64,000 bases of DNA. It comes from Fistulifera solaris (taxonomy: Eukaryota). This document shows positions 13,344-21,513 of this stretch, piece after piece. Position 1 is the stretch's first letter. The number at the start of each line of letters is the position of its first letter. A model generated the notes under the pieces. That model was given only the letters and a program-made list of their open reading frames with translations, was not told where the DNA came from and ran no database searches. Location: contig AP026142.1 in assembly GCA_030295235.1 (NCBI GenBank), forward strand, positions 682,001 through 746,000. The letters are read 5' to 3'. Made by a program: the position numbers and the translations under genes.

Positions 13344-14108
13344 GATACTGATAGGAGATAATGAAAGCAATTGTAGTGATTGTAAATAGCAAAGGCCATC
13401 TGGACGATTTTTCGGATGTATGAAAGTCGTTGTCGTCCAAAAAAGTGAATTGATGAGAAAAGTGAGTCAGTCGTCACACTCCAATTGTCAAAACTCGTGA
13501 CTTGGATCTCGCAAGTTATCCTTATCTCTTATCACTTATCATTAATCGTACTATGAGCTGGTAAGAACTCTGGTGATGATTCAAAAGGGCAACGTGGCCC
13601 AAGATCGGCATCTTTGACATGGACGGAAAGTTCAATGGGGATAAAGAATGCGCACCGAAGTCTTCTGGAGTGGTGAGTCAGTAGTATTTGCAAGACAAAA
13701 TTTCTTGTTGCAAGACATCACGACGTCATTTTACATCTTTCAAGACAGTAAATCGTTTGGAACCTGACGCAGATAGAGGTCACTGAACGAAATCCTGACC
13801 CATTCCGACGGAATTCTCACGAAGGCGGAATCCGATGCGCCACCCAGTCACTCTCGATGAACAGTACCTCTCCAAGTGGTACTCCGAACTCCGTACCTTT
13901 TGTACTGCGAATTCCAACTCAGCGCGATCCGATTGAATTCTCAAGAAGAAGAGAAAAAAATCTCCACAATATAAACAAGCGATCATATTCTTTTGTTATT
14001 TTTCTTGTTGTTGTTGTTATTGAATGAATCATCATCATTAGCTTTCATCATCATGAAGACATCTTCGACTGATAATACAAGGACTGTTTATTCCGGCAGA
14101 AGCGTATA

Positions 14109-15554
14109 TTGCTCTTATACGCTCCTTCTTCTTTGCTTTCCTCACGGACAACAACACTTCAAGCCTACGTGACATCTCCCGGAGCCGTCCCGGTGCATCG
14201 ACAACGCGCCTTTTTACAAGAAATCACTATTGATTTGTGTCAAACGACGACACCGTTATCGAATGAACAACTTTCGCAAGCTCCCAAACTGTTAGAAGCG
14301 TGGAGTAAACAACCGACGGCCCAAGCTGCCTTGCAGAGTGAGAAATTGGTGGCCCGCGTGATTGCGGAAAAGAAAGCGGGAAATGTGGCGGCCGATCTCA
14401 GTGTGCGTGATTACAATTGTTTATTGTCGACGTGGTGCAGTATGCAAAACAACGCGGAGCGCTGTGAACAAATTGTTGAAACGATGCAAGTCGTCGGAGA
14501 GCCTTTGCCGAATTTGGAGTCCTTCAAACTAGTCTTGAAAGCATGGAGGCAACAACGACCCGTCGATCCGACGTATGCGCCATTTCGTGCACAGCGCATC
14601 CTGGATTGGATGATTCGATTGTACAGTGATGGAGAAAACGAACAGGCATTACCGGATGCCGAGTGTTTTGATATTTGTTTGACGATTTGGAGTCGATCGG
14701 GTCATCCCGAAGCACCCGAGCGGACGGAAAAGTTGTTGGGGGCCATGGAACGATTGCATCGCTCAACCGGAGCGGCTAAGCCACGCCATACGAGTTTCAA
14801 TGCGGTATTAGCAGCGTGGAGTAAGTCCCATCGTCCGGATGCCGCTGATCGGGCGATGGATATTTTGAGTTTCATGGAATTGTTGGCTTCACACGGAGAT
14901 TTGACGCTCGATGCAGCATCGTACAACACGGTCATGAATACGGTAGTCTTGACAACCGAGGCCGGGGATGCTTCGTTGAAAGCACAAGCCATTCTCAAGC
15001 ATGCACTCAAAGCACAGAAACAAGATCCGGAACATGTGCAGTTGGAAACGATTCTGTTCAATTCTGCCATGGGTGCGCTGGCGAAAAGTAAAACTTCAGG
15101 AGCTTTCGTCAAGGCCCGAACCATTCTGGATCGACAAATCACATTGTACGAAAATGGCTGCACGTCGTGTCGACCGGATGTGGTAGGATACACTTCCGTA
15201 ATTGCTTGCTGTGCTGCAGAGACAAGCGATCGGACCGCGGCATTTGCTACCGCCATGCAAACCTTTCAAGAAATCGAAACACCCAATCACATTACCTACG
15301 GCACCATGTTGAAAGCTTGTGCCAAGCTATTACCGCACGAAGTACCCGCCCGTCGAAAAGCCGTGCGCCAATTGATGGCACAAGCCAAAGAAGCGGGATG
15401 TGTGGGAGAAATGGTCGTTTCGCGGTTGCGGGAAGCGACTCCGGAATTGTACAAGGAATTGCTGGAAGGACACAGCAAGAAGCAATTACCGCAGCAATGG
15501 ACACGAAATGTTGATGAGTCGACGAAGAAAAAGAGACGTCGGGCCGAAGTATAG
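14109..15554 (+). CDS. Pentatricopeptide repeat (PPR) protein, organelle RNA-binding
   Basis: Repeated PPR units: 'DYNCLLSTW', 'PNLESFKLVLKAW', 'PDAECFDICLTIWSRSG', 'SFNAVLAAWSKS', 'SYNTVMN', 'PDVVGYTSVIACCA' and 'PNHITYGTMLKAC'. True start is uncertain (possibly ATG ~14053 with a frameshift). Confidence 0.85.
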   Translation: MLLYAPSSLLSSRTTTLQAYVTSPGAVPVHRQRAFLQEITIDLCQTTTPLSNEQLSQAPKLLEAWSKQPTAQAALQSEKLVARVIAEKKAGNVAADLSVRDYNCLLSTWCSMQNNAERCEQIVETMQVVGEPLPNLESFKLVLKAWRQQRPVDPTYAPFRAQRILDWMIRLYSDGENEQALPDAECFDICLTIWSRSGHPEAPERTEKLLGAMERLHRSTGAAKPRHTSFNAVLAAWSKSHRPDAADRAMDILSFMELLASHGDLTLDAASYNTVMNTVVLTTEAGDASLKAQAILKHALKAQKQDPEHVQLETILFNSAMGALAKSKTSGAFVKARTILDRQITLYENGCTSCRPDVVGYTSVIACCAAETSDRTAAFATAMQTFQEIETPNHITYGTMLKACAKLLPHEVPARRKAVRQLMAQAKEAGCVGEMVVSRLREATPELYKELLEGHSKKQLPQQWTRNVDESTKKKRRRAEV

Positions 15555-15715
15555 CTTTCTTGGAACGGCGTTGCATTCATTTTGATCCATTTTTGTACAA
15601 TTTTTCCTCCATCCAAACCCGTTTATCATAAAATTAGAACTATACGTAGATTATTATCATAAATGTGTCTTTATCATTTCTATTGCGTACTAGTCATTTA
15701 TGAATGATTTTTTGG

Positions 15716-17956
15716 TTACAGTTGCTTCAAGGCATCTCGTACCACTTCACAAGCAGCAATACCATCGTGTTGGTCTGTTATCTGTTTCAACTTCGTTGTG
15801 TCTAGTGAGCACGCCGCTTTCCACAGCGCCTTGACTTGCTGAATGTTGTAGATGGCTTCTTTCACTGGATCACTTCGCTGGGGGAACGTGTCAAAATAGA
15901 AATGCCCTCGATAATTTGCTTGACGTAACTGATACATCACTTCTAACGCCATGGAAGGATGAACGGACCCAAACAACAAGCCGTCTTCCGCAGCCAATCG
16001 CGTGTACCCATCGTTTAGTTGTATGCCGAACAATTTGTCGTGCTGTGCCACCAATGCAATACTTTGTGCTGGATTCTCACCGGCCATCAGCATGTGACCC
16101 ACGTCCATCGTCAACCCAAAATTATCCCTTTGCACATCTTGACACAACAATAACGCCGTACCCGTGCTCGGAACCAAAAAGAAGCGGGTATTCTCGTCGG
16201 TTGGTTTGAATTCTAAGGAGAATTTGATTTGCGGGTAAGCATCACAACACCGTTGGAAGGCTTGCACTATTTGTTGCCATTTTTCGCCATAATCAATTTG
16301 AAAAGGATAATCGTATCCATCAAAGGCGGACCAGACTACCACCTCTCGACAACCCAAAAACAAGGCCGCTTCAGCCGCTTCAAGTGTCATTTGGATTGCT
16401 TCTTCACGACGCTGTGCATCTGGATGCAAGAATGACCCCAACGCGAATCGTTCGGCTGGATAGCGCAAACATACGGCACCTGCCTTCAAGCGATAGGCCG
16501 CTAGGGCGTCTTTCAGTTCCGATAAGGAATGCGAATGGAAATGCTGCGGATAATTGAAATCGATACAAGTCAATCCTGGTATTGTCGCTTGTCGTTTCAA
16601 CCATTCCATGACCGACCCCTTGTTATTCGTTTCGTCGGTACTCCACAAATCCCATCGATCCTTCATGGAATTCAAACGGGAACCAATGAGAAAAGGAAAT
16701 TCGGTCTTTTTGGCTGGATCTGCTAGTGCAGGTCTTTGTATGGAATCTCTGTCCGTTTTGCGCACGTCGCTCTCCTCATCTACAACATGTACTGACATTG
16801 ACTGAGGATCGTTTTCTCCTCGTTCCTCGACGGATTGCCACAACGACAAAGCCTGGTCGTACTGTTCTTGTACTTGTTCCCAGGTCGGAGCCGCCGCGAC
16901 GGCTCCCATGGTTTGTACCGCACACGCTCCCGCCGCCGTAGCCCACGCCAATGGTGGTTCCTGTCTTTGTAGTAAAGCAGCCACAAAGGCCGCACGAAAA
17001 CAATCGCCCGCCCCCGTTTCATCCACAACGGTAGTAACGGGTACTGCTGGAAGATGTAATGGTCGGTTCGTCGTTGTCGAAGTATCAGCACAACGAGGAG
17101 GAAACCATGTCGCTCCTTGTCGACCTTGTGTGACAATCACATGATTGGCATGACAGTGCTGTTGTAAGAACTGGACTTGTTCCATCACAGTAGTAGACAG
17201 CGGATTGTTGGTGCCGTGAGTATCATAAATTTCACTTTTCAGTTTCTGTACCAGTCGCTGTAATTCAGTTTCATTGGGCATAAGATAATCGACACACGCC
17301 AAGTGATGCATAGGACGATCGGCTCCACCCACATCTTGTACAGTGATAATGTGGGGAAAATGGGTCTTGACATAACGACACAAGAATTGATTGACAAAAT
17401 CGGGAATCTCGCATTGCAATAAAAGGCATTGAATGTTCTGTGATTGAATCAGTTGGTGCAAATAAGGCCAAATCATGGTAGGTTGTTGTTGAAATTGTTT
17501 TCCGATCGTTTTCCATTCATCCCAACCGTATTCATTGCTGCCTCCACTAACAATGGCACTGACTTGTCCCGTGCTTTCACATAAAGTGATATAACCTCTT
17601 CCGCAGGGTAATTGTGGGTGTGATCCGCATTGCCAATGTAAGGAAGAAGAAGAAGAAGAAGACAGAAGATCCGATGGATCGGGCAGATCGTAGCCCACTT
17701 GTCCTAGGAAACACACTTTGCCTTTCATTAATTTCGACAAAGCCACCGCTTGCGTCAATCCTTTCCCGCCCCATTGATGCCACGGCATTCGTAAGGTTGT
17801 CAAGTTTTCTCCTTCTTGCGGCATTCGTTCGACGGGTAAATACGTATCGATATTGACGGAACCCACCACGAGGACATTGGCGGCAGCGTGAATCAATAAT
17901 AATGTGAAATGAAAGCATATTATTATGCAAAGGATTCGAGCAGATTGATGTAGCAT
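15716..17956 (-). CDS. Fusion of PfkB/ribokinase-family kinase and xylose/rhamnose-isomerase-like TIM barrel
   Basis: Single uninterrupted 746-aa ORF. N-half has VVGSVNID, GGKGLTQA, PNETE and VVDETGAGDCF. C-half has DFNYPQH, VVWSAFDGYDYPFQ, LEFKP, MDVGH, QLNDG and YFDTFP. Confidence 0.85.
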   Translation of the reverse strand: MLHQSARILCIIICFHFTLLLIHAAANVLVVGSVNIDTYLPVERMPQEGENLTTLRMPWHQWGGKGLTQAVALSKLMKGKVCFLGQVGYDLPDPSDLLSSSSSSSLHWQCGSHPQLPCGRGYITLCESTGQVSAIVSGGSNEYGWDEWKTIGKQFQQQPTMIWPYLHQLIQSQNIQCLLLQCEIPDFVNQFLCRYVKTHFPHIITVQDVGGADRPMHHLACVDYLMPNETELQRLVQKLKSEIYDTHGTNNPLSTTVMEQVQFLQQHCHANHVIVTQGRQGATWFPPRCADTSTTTNRPLHLPAVPVTTVVDETGAGDCFRAAFVAALLQRQEPPLAWATAAGACAVQTMGAVAAAPTWEQVQEQYDQALSLWQSVEERGENDPQSMSVHVVDEESDVRKTDRDSIQRPALADPAKKTEFPFLIGSRLNSMKDRWDLWSTDETNNKGSVMEWLKRQATIPGLTCIDFNYPQHFHSHSLSELKDALAAYRLKAGAVCLRYPAERFALGSFLHPDAQRREEAIQMTLEAAEAALFLGCREVVVWSAFDGYDYPFQIDYGEKWQQIVQAFQRCCDAYPQIKFSLEFKPTDENTRFFLVPSTGTALLLCQDVQRDNFGLTMDVGHMLMAGENPAQSIALVAQHDKLFGIQLNDGYTRLAAEDGLLFGSVHPSMALEVMYQLRQANYRGHFYFDTFPQRSDPVKEAIYNIQQVKALWKAACSLDTTKLKQITDQHDGIAACEVVRDALKQL

Positions 17957-18375
17957 CTTTTTGTATGTATCTATACAAGTAGTTATGAGATGAGAAACTT
18001 CGTGGGTTCGTCGTCGTGCGTGTATGATTTATTATTACTCCGTACTTTGTACGAAAGATACGCGATACGCCATCCTGCGTCATGGTCGACTTTTTTCGTG
18101 CCGAGAGCCGAGAAGAATCATACTCCGTACTATGTTGTGATGACGCACAGTGTAGGATTGAAATCCAGTCGTGATACTTGTTCCTTGTTGAATGGACAGA
18201 AAGGCAGACGCATTGGGATGGGAGCGCCTTTTTTTCACACCAACAAAAAAAAAAAAGCGGCCGCGTATTTCTTTTGCCTTTTGTCTTGATTTGCTGTCTT
18301 GAAACTTTATAAACACCCTACCTTACGGCAAAGATTGGTCGATTCGTATTTCGTATAAATATACACTTTAATAAT

Positions 18376-20538
18376 ATGAAACGAACTAGACCATGGGACA
18401 AGCACGATCGCCCTAATCCGTTCATAAAGACGACGACGACGACGACGACGACATTTACATCGACTACAAAAACGAAGAAAGTAACTCGAAGTGTTACTGC
18501 CATTACTGCGTCTCCACACGATAGCAATCATCATACTCGCAAGAGCATTCCTTCTATTGAAATTGAAGGTATTCCTTTTTATAGTGATCGCTTTTATTTG
18601 CATCGCACAATCTACGATACGGATGATGCACACGACGCTTCTCGACCCAACCGTATCCATAATAACAAATGCCATTGCGGAGTCAAACAGCCGCTTCCTC
18701 TATTCGATCGAGCAGCTTTGCTTCGTTCTTTGAATTTAAAAGCTGTCATTTGGAGTACTTATACGATGGAACCGGAAGCATGGGCGTCGGAATATCCTAC
18801 TTTGTTTGGACGGGATGCGACCATTCCGACATTGGTGATGCATGGAAAAAGGGATGGACGTGGAACGAGTACACACAGCAACAACAACAACAACAACAAC
18901 AACAGCAACAATCTGTGGATGATGAAGACTCTATAATAGCAGAGGAAGAATATGTTCGACGGGACGACGATAGTATTGTGACACAACCTCCGGATCCAAC
19001 TACGACGAATCAACCGAACAAACACAATTACTATAGGTTTCCTGAAACGGTGCATTTCAGTGAAATTACTGCGTCTTGGATAGCTCCCAATGATCTGGCG
19101 CGTGTTTCACGGATCATGGACGACGAAACGGGATGCTTGTCTCCCGAGTTGTTGGCAGTAAGAAAGTCGTGCAAAGGTGTGCATCATCCAAAGTACATGT
19201 TGTTATTCGAAACCAGCGGGGCATTGATTGTGGTCGTGTCTACCGCCAATATGACGACCAGTCGAACCATTGATGCGTCTTGGATGCAGCGCTTTCCTCC
19301 TCTGGATCGCAAGGGAAATACTCCAACACCATCCTCGTCCAGTAGTGACTTCGGTCTCGCCTTGGCGCATTTCATGCAGCACCAAATGCTTAGTACACGA
19401 GCCAATCAAATGACACTCACGGTATTTCTGCAACGTCATGTGGGATGGAAATCTTTGCGTGATTTGTTGCGTCTGTATTCTTTTGATAAGGCGCAAGTGC
19501 ATCTCATGCCCATTGTGCCGGGGATATTTCCTTTGGACGTGCCAGTACCCCATCGGGCACCACCGAAAGAAGAAAGTAAGAAAAAGTCTTTTGTTTTCTT
19601 CGGACAGCAGCGTATGGCTCAAGTCTTGCAACAACTTACGGCAGGAAAGTCTCCGTGGTTGCCCCCGGATTTATTGTCCGATCATGATCGTTTGCTGTGT
19701 CAACCGACGAGTTTGGGCGCCGAATGGACGGTCGAACAAATGTCGAGTATGGTACACGCTTATTTGAGTCATGCCATTCCACAACGTCCACAAGTTGATT
19801 CGTTGAAGCGATTGGATATCATTTGGCCAACGGATTACTATGTTCAACAAGTCAAAGCTGTTCTTCATGAAGGAGTCACAACTTGCATTCCGAATGCTTT
19901 TCCTACTGAATACAATGCTCACGCATCGTCACAACTCGCGTGCAGCGGATATCTCTTCTTGTCATCCGAGACCTTCAATCGCATACCTATTGACTGTCTT
20001 TCACAAATGGTGCTTTGGGAACCATGTTACCCCAGTCCGCAAAAGACCACACTGGTGCCACACATCAAAAGCATCGCTCGCGTCTTTCACGGCAATGACT
20101 ACCGCATCCGCAAGGATTACGGAATTCCGAAATGCGAAGAATTGTTTCCGTGGTTTTTGTTGACAAGTGCGTGTCTTTCGCGAGGAGCACAAGGCGTTTG
20201 CATCGACCAGGCCATGCATTATGCCAATTTTGAACTCGGTGTACTGTTTTCCAGTCGATTGGATCACGAGGAGAAGCGTCTGTATTGCTGGAAGCCATCG
20301 CAATGTGTATGCCACACCAAAGCGAATAGTACGGCAAGCACCGCTCGATGGATTCATTTGCCTCTCCCCCTATTGTGTACGTCCACCCCGTTACCAAGAA
20401 GACGAAGAGGAAGTGGGATTCTGTGAGACACCGTATTTTCACGAAGTGACTTCGGGCTCTGTTGCCGTGGGTAATATGCGATTCACACCGTACGGCGCCG
20501 CCATGGCAGAGAAACTAGCCAAGAAAGACAGTTCGTAG
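18376..20538 (+). CDS. TDP1: Tyrosyl-DNA phosphodiesterase 1-like (PLD superfamily)
   Basis: First HxK motif GVHHPKYMLLF…VVSTANM, then QPTSLG and IIWPT, second motif PHIKS…WFLLTSACLSRGAQG, and NFELGVLF. Frameshifts at the A run ~18846-18850 and the C run ~20366-20370 join three ORF pieces. Confidence 0.85.
18876..18911 (+). repeat. (CAA)n trinucleotide microsatellite (poly-Gln in TDP1)
   Basis: About 12 CAA/CAG units. Other coding trinucleotide tracts lie at 13247-13273 (TCG)n and 18429-18452 (GAC)n. Confidence 0.85.
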
Positions 20539-20652
20539 TAGCTTGTTAGATTTTTTTATTAGCCAGTACTTATTTCAGCCAAGTCTGTGTAAATATTATA
20601 CGTCCTTAGATGTAAAACAATAAAGATATTCATGTTGTTACGATGTTGCTGA

Positions 20653-21513
20653 TCACATCGCTTCCACAAGCAACACGAGACAGCTAACTCCGAGACCAAA
20701 ATTTACCACACAATTGTTAGCCAAAGAGGTTGCAGTTGGTTCTACTATAGTGGTAGAAGGAAGAAATGCATCACTAGGAGCTTCCACTGGAGCGACAACA
20801 GCACTTTCCGCGTCTGCAGTGGGCTGTGAGTCTGATTCGACCGGAGAAGGCACCGGAGACTCCTCCTCCTCCTGTTCGTTAACGACCGGCGATGCCACCG
20901 GTGACGAGGCAACAGGCGAGGAAGACAAAACAGTAGATAGTTGTGAACAGTCCTCCTCACCATCATCACCCGGCACATCCAAATAGATATCAAAACGAAC
21001 GGCACGACTCCCATCGTCAGCTTCCGCAATCTCGACCGCTTGCAATGTGCGACTGGGCTGATAGCCAAATTCGTCCCCTACAAAGTACATTTGCGTCACT
21101 AACAATTCTTCGTCACCCCGTGACGCTCGAACATGAACATGTAAAGGTCGTCCTGTATAGAGAGCTGGATAGGTTTGTGTATAATTGTACTGTCCGCACG
21201 CTTCTGTCACCAGCATTCCTCGATATTCATCATCGCGATACCCTTCTTCGCCCGCGTACCAGATTTCAATCGTAATGCCTGACAGTCCTTTGGTACAATC
21301 CTGAGCACTGAGAACATTACCAGATACTTTCAACTGATTGGTCGGATCTTGCAACAAATCTTCAGGTCCAATGAGGGTAGAACGAGGCGAGGCTGCAATA
21401 TAAAACGGTCCTAACATATCTGTCGGCGTTTCACTGGAAGGACACGTCTGACTGACGACCACAAGGAATAATCGTAGCATGAGAATACAGCGTATGCTTT
21501 GATAAAAAACCAT
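20653..21513 (-). CDS. Secreted/surface intradiol ring-cleavage dioxygenase-like protein with Ser/Pro/Glu stalk and hydrophobic C-terminus
   Basis: 'TPTDMLGPFY', 'LKVSGNV', 'IEIWYA…GY', 'YRG…T…GQYNY', 'YPALYTGRPLHVHVR' and 'LVTQMYF' match the intradiol dioxygenase C-domain with Tyr/Tyr/His/His iron ligands. Hydrophobic N-terminus (MVFYQ… start at 21513); terminal 'FGLGVSCLVLLVEAM'. Confidence 0.8.
   Translation of the reverse strand: MVFYQSIRCILMLRLFLVVVSQTCPSSETPTDMLGPFYIAASPRSTLIGPEDLLQDPTNQLKVSGNVLSAQDCTKGLSGITIEIWYAGEEGYRDDEYRGMLVTEACGQYNYTQTYPALYTGRPLHVHVRASRGDEELLVTQMYFVGDEFGYQPSRTLQAVEIAEADDGSRAVRFDIYLDVPGDDGEEDCSQLSTVLSSSPVASSPVASPVVNEQEEEESPVPSPVESDSQPTADAESAVVAPVEAPSDAFLPSTTIVEPTATSLANNCVVNFGLGVSCLVLLVEAM

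Follow-up and report, generated by a model that had tools for sequence, protein, structure and literature searches.

A ribokinase-family kinase joined to a xylose isomerase-like barrel in Fistulifera solaris and other algae: a putative two-step sugar enzyme with a two-gene counterpart in bacteria

The described enzymes closest to the gene studied here are the ribokinases of the PfkB family, such as E. coli RbsK and Arabidopsis RBSK, and the class I D-xylose isomerases of Streptomyces and Thermus together with the L-rhamnose isomerase RhaI of P. stutzeri. PfkB kinases carry an N-terminal GG/GSxNxD region, an NxxE motif and a DxxGAGD anion hole with the catalytic Asp. Xylose and rhamnose isomerases act on unphosphorylated sugars. 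Isomerase, kinase and aldolase are combined in the FucI-FucK-FucA and RhaA-RhaB-RhaD routes, and the L-fucose, L-rhamnose and D-arabinose routes use kinases of the FGGY family and isomerases that are unrelated to, or larger than, the one considered here. We have analysed a 64,000-nucleotide stretch of DNA from the diatom Fistulifera solaris (contig AP026142.1 of assembly GCA_030295235.1, positions 682,001 to 746,000; hereafter the window), in which a single gene on the minus strand, at 15716..17956, encodes a PfkB kinase followed by a xylose isomerase-like barrel. We propose, with a probability of about 0.68, that its product is a bifunctional enzyme in which the isomerase and the ribokinase-family kinase would work in turn on the same free sugar.

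Translation of the window revealed an open reading frame (ORF) of 746 codons at 15716..17956 on the minus strand, with an ATG start, no internal stop and a TAA stop codon at 15716-15718, making up a complete coding sequence in a single frame and a single exon. Alignment of this ORF with 15 diatom homologues was collinear, and neither an intron nor a frameshift was required. The protein thus predicted is one chain, on which a hydrophobic leader and a kinase of the PfkB family are followed, after a disordered linker, by a xylose isomerase-like triosephosphate isomerase (TIM) barrel. The original prediction, made from the letters of the window, had described a single-chain protein of PfkB plus xylose/rhamnose isomerase type in a stop-free frame of 746 codons; both statements were borne out, the former by Pfam, which finds the two domains, and the latter by the ORF listing and the translation. 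The positions that it had given for the domains matched those obtained with the ribokinase model (kinase, nt ~17875-16865) and with a hidden Markov model (HMM) of the isomerase alignment A2 (barrel, nt ~16714-15731). All the motifs that it had quoted were found in the translation, both on the kinase side (GSVNID, GGKGLTQA, PNETE and DETGAGD) and on the barrel side (SRLNS, NYPQH, VVWSAFDGYDYPFQ, LEFKP, DVGH, QLND, AEDG and YFDTFP), and so was the hydrophobic leader ILCIIICFHFTLLLIHAAA.

The public model of the same gene is shorter (702 aa) and starts at Met45. This start appears to be mis-called, because the model lacks the hydrophobic leader as well as VVGSVNIDT, the first strand of the kinase (window 17825-17956, minus strand), a strand kept across all homologues. 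The different start of the public model would also be in keeping with an artefact of gene modelling, in which two neighbouring genes, or a gene with a missed intron, had been read as one ORF. Such an artefact is barely credible, given the single open frame of 746 codons free of stops, the in-frame linker, and the recurrence of the fused layout described below in the homologues of other diatoms, complete transcripts included, and in chlorophyte and haptophyte genomes.

When the whole protein was used as the query, 468 of 8000 scored candidates matched, and both Pfam domains were present in 120 of 120 among the matches listed. The named matches were diatoms, corresponding to Fistulifera solaris itself (87-89% identity), Nitzschia, Mayamaea, Epithemia, Cylindrotheca, Seminavis, Fragilariopsis, Pseudo-nitzschia and Amphora. 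Six of the matches listed were transcripts of the Marine Microbial Eukaryote Transcriptome Sequencing Project (MMETSP) that are marked complete and span both domains, the evidence for a single transcript being provided by these transcriptomes of other diatoms. When cluster representatives were searched with the kinase half, more proteins of ~700 aa were recovered (32-40% identity); of the 20 longer ones examined with Pfam, 14 had both domains. Members of these clusters included a 'ribokinase/xylose isomerase' of Pavlovales sp. CCMP2436, a 'ribokinase xylose isomerase' of Chloropicon primus, and proteins of Tetraselmis sp. GSL018 and Nannochloris (Chlorella) desiccata. In addition, two clusters of the ESM Atlas, with 56 and 230 members (98-100% eukaryotic), have the same architecture, and the isomerase domain was present in 31/31 fusion proteins chosen for further analysis, in one of them only in part.

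Altogether, the data confirm that the fusion is real and conserved among algae. It is not specific to diatoms: a search for the same fusion in other algae had been recommended in the original prediction, and carriers were found in three algal groups, namely diatoms, chlorophytes (Chloropicon, Tetraselmis and Nannochloris) and a haptophyte (Pavlovales). No paper on a kinase-isomerase fusion was found in full-text literature searches, and as far as these searches go the earlier statement that no enzyme of this architecture has been characterised stands. The fusion is thus new as a studied entity, yet it is already named in databases. Two proteins of the collection, P0246 (1139 aa) and P0249 (953 aa), have ~420-430 extra N-terminal residues before the kinase, and P0246 has the full fusion behind this extension.

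The kinase half is a ribokinase-family PfkB domain at residues ~28-364 (16865..17875, minus strand). The Pfam PfkB model (PF00294) matched it with an E-value of 3e-31 and 109.3 bits, above its gathering cut-off of 25.8, and the NCBIfam ribokinase model TIGR02152 spanned residues 28-364 from end to end with 119.9 bits, below an equivalog cut-off of 299.65 that was built for bacteria. The kinase half also fell short of the ribokinase model NF008353 (70.1 against a cut-off of 341). Ribokinase was likewise the best NCBIfam model for seven other fusions (7/7), with 152-235 bits, again under 299.65. By the curated cut-offs, the name 'ribokinase' is unjustified for this half. Its top relative of solved structure was the Arabidopsis ribokinase 6ILR (9.1e-29; Foldseek 4.1e-24, template modelling (TM) score 0.83), which, like E. 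coli RbsK, has the same fold and signature motifs. The GSxNxD, GGKG, NExE and GAGD motifs were present in 16/16 diatom kinase halves, in invariant columns of the alignment. The kinase half keeps the sugar and ATP motifs of ribokinases and is predicted to be catalytically competent.

Apart from its lower scores, the kinase half differs from ribokinases in several respects. It carries an insertion of ~30 residues (about residues 145-175) and a poly-Ser run (99-105); in algae it is joined to an isomerase and led by a hydrophobic leader. Furthermore, the motif reads GGKGxTQA in the window and in all 16 named diatoms, and the canonical GGKGxNQA in each of the 15 other fusions. The Asn of this motif, replaced by Thr in the named diatoms, we take to be a ribose-binding residue in E. 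coli RbsK. With its insertion, its poly-Ser run and a long branch, the kinase half seems to change more rapidly than the barrel does; the branch of the clade that unites the window with two Fistulifera proteins and two others measured 1.3-1.4 changes per column in the kinase tree vs 0.5 in the isomerase tree.

These results bear on a different explanation, in which the kinase acts first: the N-terminal half would be an ordinary ribokinase converting D-ribose into ribose-5-phosphate, the barrel would then either use the phosphorylated product or have a substrate unrelated to it, and the fusion would serve the salvage of ribose, with the barrel as an accessory domain. Ribokinase as the best NCBIfam model for all fusions tested, the canonical GGKGxNQA in the 15 non-diatom fusions, the true ribokinases found as best solved relatives, and the order of the domains, kinase and then isomerase, are all consistent with it. 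An Albugo candida protein annotated as ribokinase is, moreover, among the standalone kinases nearest to the fusion halves. On the contrary, every half tested scored below the ribokinase equivalog cut-off, and the 16 named diatom halves have Thr at the position of the presumed ribose-binding Asn; the barrel and the bacterial loci described below also speak against this explanation.

The C-terminal half is a TIM barrel of xylose/rhamnose isomerase type at residues ~415-742 (15731..16714, minus strand). It was detected by Pfam AP_endonuc_2 (PF01261) with 9e-22 and 78.4 bits against a gathering cut-off of 31.1, and by the A2 HMM, whose envelope covers residues 415-742 with 529 bits; the HMM check of each half that had been proposed earlier therefore placed both PfkB and AP_endonuc_2 above their gathering scores. 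The closest solved relative of the barrel was PDB entry 3KTC (phmmer 1.1e-44 over residues 36-331 of the domain; 1.4e-58 with the family profile; Foldseek 3.0e-20, target TM 0.85). This is a structural-genomics protein of Pectobacterium atrosepticum deposited as 'xylose isomerase', for which a literature search found no published function. It has the same short (~330 aa) xylose isomerase fold, but it is a standalone bacterial protein, and at the position of xylose isomerase Asp245 it keeps the Asp that is Gln in the window. Class I xylose isomerases (~1e-13) and the P. stutzeri L-rhamnose isomerase (~1e-11) came next, and the 46 distinct PDB sequences retrieved with the family profile at E <= 1e-5 were all xylose/rhamnose isomerases or 3KTC. 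Because the relatives of the barrel are all aldose-ketose isomerases of free sugars, and since the kinase keeps the ribokinase motifs, the protein is read as an isomerase and a kinase working in turn. That all of its solved relatives are named xylose or rhamnose isomerase argues against a barrel acting after a ribokinase on a phosphorylated product.

The barrel scored under the NCBIfam equivalog cut-offs of xylA_Arthro (67.8 vs 447), RhaI_grampos (58.1 vs 531.35), L_rham_iso_rhiz (45.2 vs 646.75) and xylose_isom_A (15.8 vs 533.25). In an alignment with a Deinococcota class I xylose isomerase, taken from the outgroup set, residues W542, E582, K584, D618, H621, E657/D658 and D689 lined up with the columns of the Trp, of E-x-K-P and of the metal ligands, and we assume for them the roles of the corresponding residues in the Streptomyces xylose isomerase. 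The same residues and Q646 were invariant in the diatom alignment A1, and the catalytic motifs of both halves appeared to be intact in the translation and in this alignment, as had been claimed. The ring-opening His column of xylose isomerase gave no confident alignment with the barrel. Going by this alignment, the barrel has in common with class I xylose isomerases and RhaI the TIM fold and the Trp, E-x-K-P, D/E-x-x-H and FD columns, whereas it is shorter than the class I enzymes, does not have their long C-terminal helical arm and has Gln or His at the Asp245 position. It also differs from xylose and rhamnose isomerases in a conserved N-terminal SRLNSMK motif of its own. From these features we propose that the barrel is a divalent-metal aldose-ketose isomerase, belonging to a subfamily of its own with 3KTC and proteins from SAR324 and Deinococcota bacteria.

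The bacterial style of the barrel, pointed out in the original prediction, was borne out by standalone isomerases of ~320 aa from SAR324 that are about 50% identical to the barrel of the window. A contig search with a single sequence found no relative, whereas a profile search with one genome per species gave 14 loci, 13 of SAR324 type and one from Trueperaceae. The close form of the isomerase was present in 14/88 genomes of the SAR324 phylum. In the Deinococcota sample, full-length relatives were found in 5/101 genomes (275-382 bits), the remaining matches being ordinary xylose isomerase-like proteins. Addition of three other Deinococcota loci gave a set of 17, in all of which (17/17) tblastn revealed a PfkB ribokinase-family kinase directly downstream of the isomerase, within a few tens of bases; Pfam confirmed the kinase in the annotated loci. 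The partner expected at the outset was a kinase of the FGGY type, and this expectation did not hold for the bacterial relatives of this isomerase. Compared with the algal protein, the bacterial pair consists of two genes in the order isomerase-then-kinase, with no leader.

The partner kinases scored 164-247 bits on the ribokinase model, under its cut-off, and a second kinase of the SAR324 loci reached 312.4 bits against 299.65, which identifies it as a true RbsK. This true RbsK and an RbsD/FucU protein accompany the pair in 10/13 SAR324 loci. The partner kinase is therefore not simply RbsK in these bacteria, and taking this together with the evidence from the two halves we regard it as unlikely that the algal protein is an ordinary ribokinase with an accessory barrel.

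Other genes near the bacterial pair point to sugar metabolism of more than one type. Downstream of the pair, Deinococcota have a ribose-type ATP-binding cassette (ABC) transporter, whose binding protein was best matched by the D-allose binder model (194.9 bits) and then by RbsB (111.8 bits), and a DeoR regulator is also present. In several loci a tripartite ATP-independent periplasmic (TRAP) transporter, a class II aldolase and an ApbA-type reductase are divergent to the pair. At one of these (L009:1819-4743; also L005 and L011), a short MetE-like methyltransferase (NF005085, 442 bits) lies by the divergent TRAP transporter, and the class II aldolase-superfamily protein and the ApbA/PanE-type reductase are in the same stretch. 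At the SAR324 locus L001, a FucA-like aldolase gene overlaps the start of the isomerase gene; its product reached 262.4 bits, under the cut-off of 264, and the ribulose-1-phosphate aldolase model gave it 172.5 bits. This string of overlapping genes (FucA-like aldolase, isomerase and kinase) follows the same logic as the fucose and rhamnose routes, from which it differs in having a PfkB kinase; the algal fusion has no known aldolase partner.

A different set of neighbours was observed at the SAR324-type locus L003 (L003:6390-13141) and at L002, where the pair is flanked by an FGGY pentulose-kinase-like gene, by genes for E1 alpha and beta subunits of pyruvate/acetoin-dehydrogenase type and by one for a lipoyl-domain/alpha-beta-hydrolase protein, a downstream chemistry unlike that of the L001 aldolase. 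Two weaker xylose isomerase-like hits of the SAR324 phylum (G079 and G080; E ~1e-45) lie beside RpiB, Dak1/Dak2 and transaldolase genes and were placed outside this family. The corresponding layout, a distant xylose isomerase-like barrel strung with RpiB, Dak1/Dak2 subunits and transaldolase, was seen in two large genomes of the phylum (L028:3815-8962 and L029:1459-6423), and it recalls tetrose/erythrulose pathways.

The FGGY kinase gene upstream of the isomerase at L003 would fit an apiose-type pathway, a lead contained in the original prediction, in which the barrel would be a relative of D-apiose isomerase and the fusion would salvage apiose via apulose. 3KTC itself may be the apiose isomerase ApsI. 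According to PMC13001218, an apiose cluster containing apsI was described in the genus from which 3KTC comes, Pectobacterium (Erwinia carotovora atroseptica), and the same source names the apiose genes aplK, aptA and aptB of E. coli SE15. Their annotation does not agree with the loci described here: aplK (ECSF_RS02700) is annotated as FGGY in RefSeq, and aptA and aptB encode two transketolase subunits. The apiose pathway requires this split transketolase, whereas the partner of the isomerase is a PfkB kinase in 17/17 loci. Neither an FGGY-type apulose kinase nor an AptAB-type transketolase pair accompanies the isomerase-kinase pair in the annotated loci, L003 having instead the E1 subunits of pyruvate/acetoin-dehydrogenase type. 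Apiose was therefore dropped as the principal explanation, and a role in its salvage is judged very improbable.

To place the two halves, quick maximum-likelihood trees were built for the isomerase (57 rows) and for the kinase (63 rows, including 31 fusion halves, and 39 rows, including 15). The fusion kinase halves formed one clade, with support of 99 in the Shimodaira-Hasegawa-like approximate likelihood ratio test (SH-aLRT) in both the 63-row and the 39-row trees, and the bacterial partner kinases formed a separate clade (SH-aLRT 95). In the isomerase tree, the SAR324 proteins were nested among the algal ones. Approximately unbiased (AU) tests were carried out after removal of 12 near-duplicate or problematic rows. 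A split between bacterial and eukaryotic isomerases was not rejected (p = 0.586), the constrained tree being 2.58 log-likelihood units better, and transfer of the isomerase from a eukaryote to bacteria, suggested by the nesting, was accordingly dropped. A single clade of fusion kinase halves and bacterial partner kinases was not rejected either (p = 0.5), and the independent recruitment of the algal kinase half that the free trees suggested was left without formal support. The origin of either half, including the horizontal one considered in the original prediction, is thus not decided by these trees.

Considered together, these observations make a two-step role, with one half isomerising and the other phosphorylating, the best reading of the protein, as had first been suggested; the adjacency in 17/17 bacterial loci and the fusion in all listed homologues are points in its favour. 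The two halves are expected to act on the same metabolite because algae make them as one protein and bacteria invariably encode them side by side, which constitutes evidence of the Rosetta-stone type. In the proposed mechanism, the barrel would interconvert an aldose and its 2-ketose, and the ATP-dependent kinase half would phosphorylate one of this pair, trapping it as a phosphate ester destined for central metabolism; in the bacterial versions, the phosphorylated sugar could then be cleaved by a FucA-like aldolase. We infer that the two reactions are consecutive, with isomerisation preceding phosphorylation, because of the bacterial gene order and of the isomerase-kinase-aldolase precedent of fucose and rhamnose. 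As for the substrate, our guess is that a ribo- or allo-configured sugar (D-ribose/D-ribulose, D-allose/D-psicose) or a 6-deoxyhexose such as L-fucose would fit best, because RbsD/FucU, RbsK, an AlsB/RbsB-like binder and a FucA-like aldolase are among the neighbours of the bacterial pair.

Several observations weigh against this proposal. The algal domains (kinase-isomerase) and the bacterial genes (isomerase-kinase) stand in opposite orders, and the FucA-like aldolase adjoins the pair in 1/17 loci only. Both halves scored under every NCBIfam equivalog cut-off tested, and the column of the xylose isomerase metal ligand Asp245 is occupied by Gln646 in the window and by His in some relatives. 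Because the free kinase tree sets the algal halves by eukaryote-type ribokinases and not by the bacterial partner kinases, the pairing could be the outcome of two separate events, or the algal half could be nothing but the cell's own ribokinase. Finally, a leader resembling a signal peptide is odd on an ATP-dependent kinase of free sugars.

This leader corresponds to residues 1-26, MLHQSARILCIIICFHFTLLLIHAAA (17879..17956, minus strand). Its top 10-residue Kyte-Doolittle window reached 2.92, within 20 uncharged residues in a row, and an AlphaFold2 model based on the sequences of 16 diatom proteins (mean predicted local distance difference test (pLDDT) 78.9, predicted TM score 0.51) has a helix at residues 2-22. 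In the same model, the kinase domain and the barrel were confident, and the charged interdomain linker at residues 379-417 (16706..16822, minus strand) was of low confidence, with a pLDDT of about 30-43; the linker varies in length and sequence among homologues.

The hydrophobic, signal peptide-like N-terminus noticed at first sight was also found in the homologues. Of 16 aligned diatom proteins, 15 have hydrophobic residues ahead of the first strand of the kinase, with a best 10-residue Kyte-Doolittle mean no lower than 2.09; the one leaderless protein probably reflects a short gene model, and inspection revealed such a leader in 12/15 non-diatom fusions, green algae among them. The sequence of the leader varies among diatom homologues. 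By eye, many leaders end in AxA-like triplets right before the fold (HAAA|N, VYA|T, VQA|I and SEA|K). Plastid targeting as scored by ASAFind-type criteria calls for an aromatic residue or Leu at +1, followed by a stretch resembling a transit peptide; in the protein studied here, Asn follows the cleavage site assigned by eye, at +1, and the kinase fold starts immediately. From its sequence, the leader looks cleavable and secretory, more like a Sec signal peptide than like a plastid presequence. In a few homologues (Nitzschia, Mayamaea, Fragilariopsis and Pavlovales), longer N-terminal extensions rich in Ser, Thr and Ala were found.

A more speculative extension, which we consider doubtful, is that the family belongs to an undescribed route for free sugars made up of a xylose isomerase-like isomerase, a ribokinase-family ketose kinase and a FucA-like aldolase, the algal enzyme being located inside the endomembrane system. 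Such a route might, for example, lead from D-ribose to D-ribulose, ribulose-1-phosphate and finally dihydroxyacetone phosphate plus glycolaldehyde, or follow an allose/psicose or 6-deoxyhexose variant, and the algal site could be the endoplasmic reticulum (ER), the chloroplast-ER lumen or the vacuole. We know of no phosphorylation of a free sugar by a PfkB kinase in an endomembrane compartment, and the conservation of a signal peptide-like leader on an ATP-dependent sugar kinase is an unusual feature.

The presence of the fusion in at least three algal phyla and the invariable adjacency of the two genes in SAR324 and Deinococcota strongly suggest that one two-step sugar reaction has been conserved. 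Diatoms, haptophytes and prasinophyte-like green algae rank among the major primary producers of the ocean, where SAR324 is an abundant heterotroph. A common sugar route could therefore involve a compound exchanged at sea.

The genes flanking the fusion in the window do not belong to sugar metabolism. On the plus strand, 14109-15554 encodes a pentatricopeptide repeat (PPR) protein, tail to tail with the fusion gene, and 18669-20426, which is divergently oriented to it, encodes a homologue of tyrosyl-DNA phosphodiesterase with a poly-Gln run. A sequencing run (X1) covered evenly all 30 bins of the region 13500-20800, spacers included. This run behaves like genomic DNA and is uninformative on transcripts, because intergenic DNA was covered as evenly as the genes. 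When its contigs were compared with the window, tight clusters of substitutions were observed at 14810-14966, 15881-15938, 16623-16641 and 20104-20183, with spacings that were mostly multiples of three, and they look like a second allele or a homeologous gene copy.

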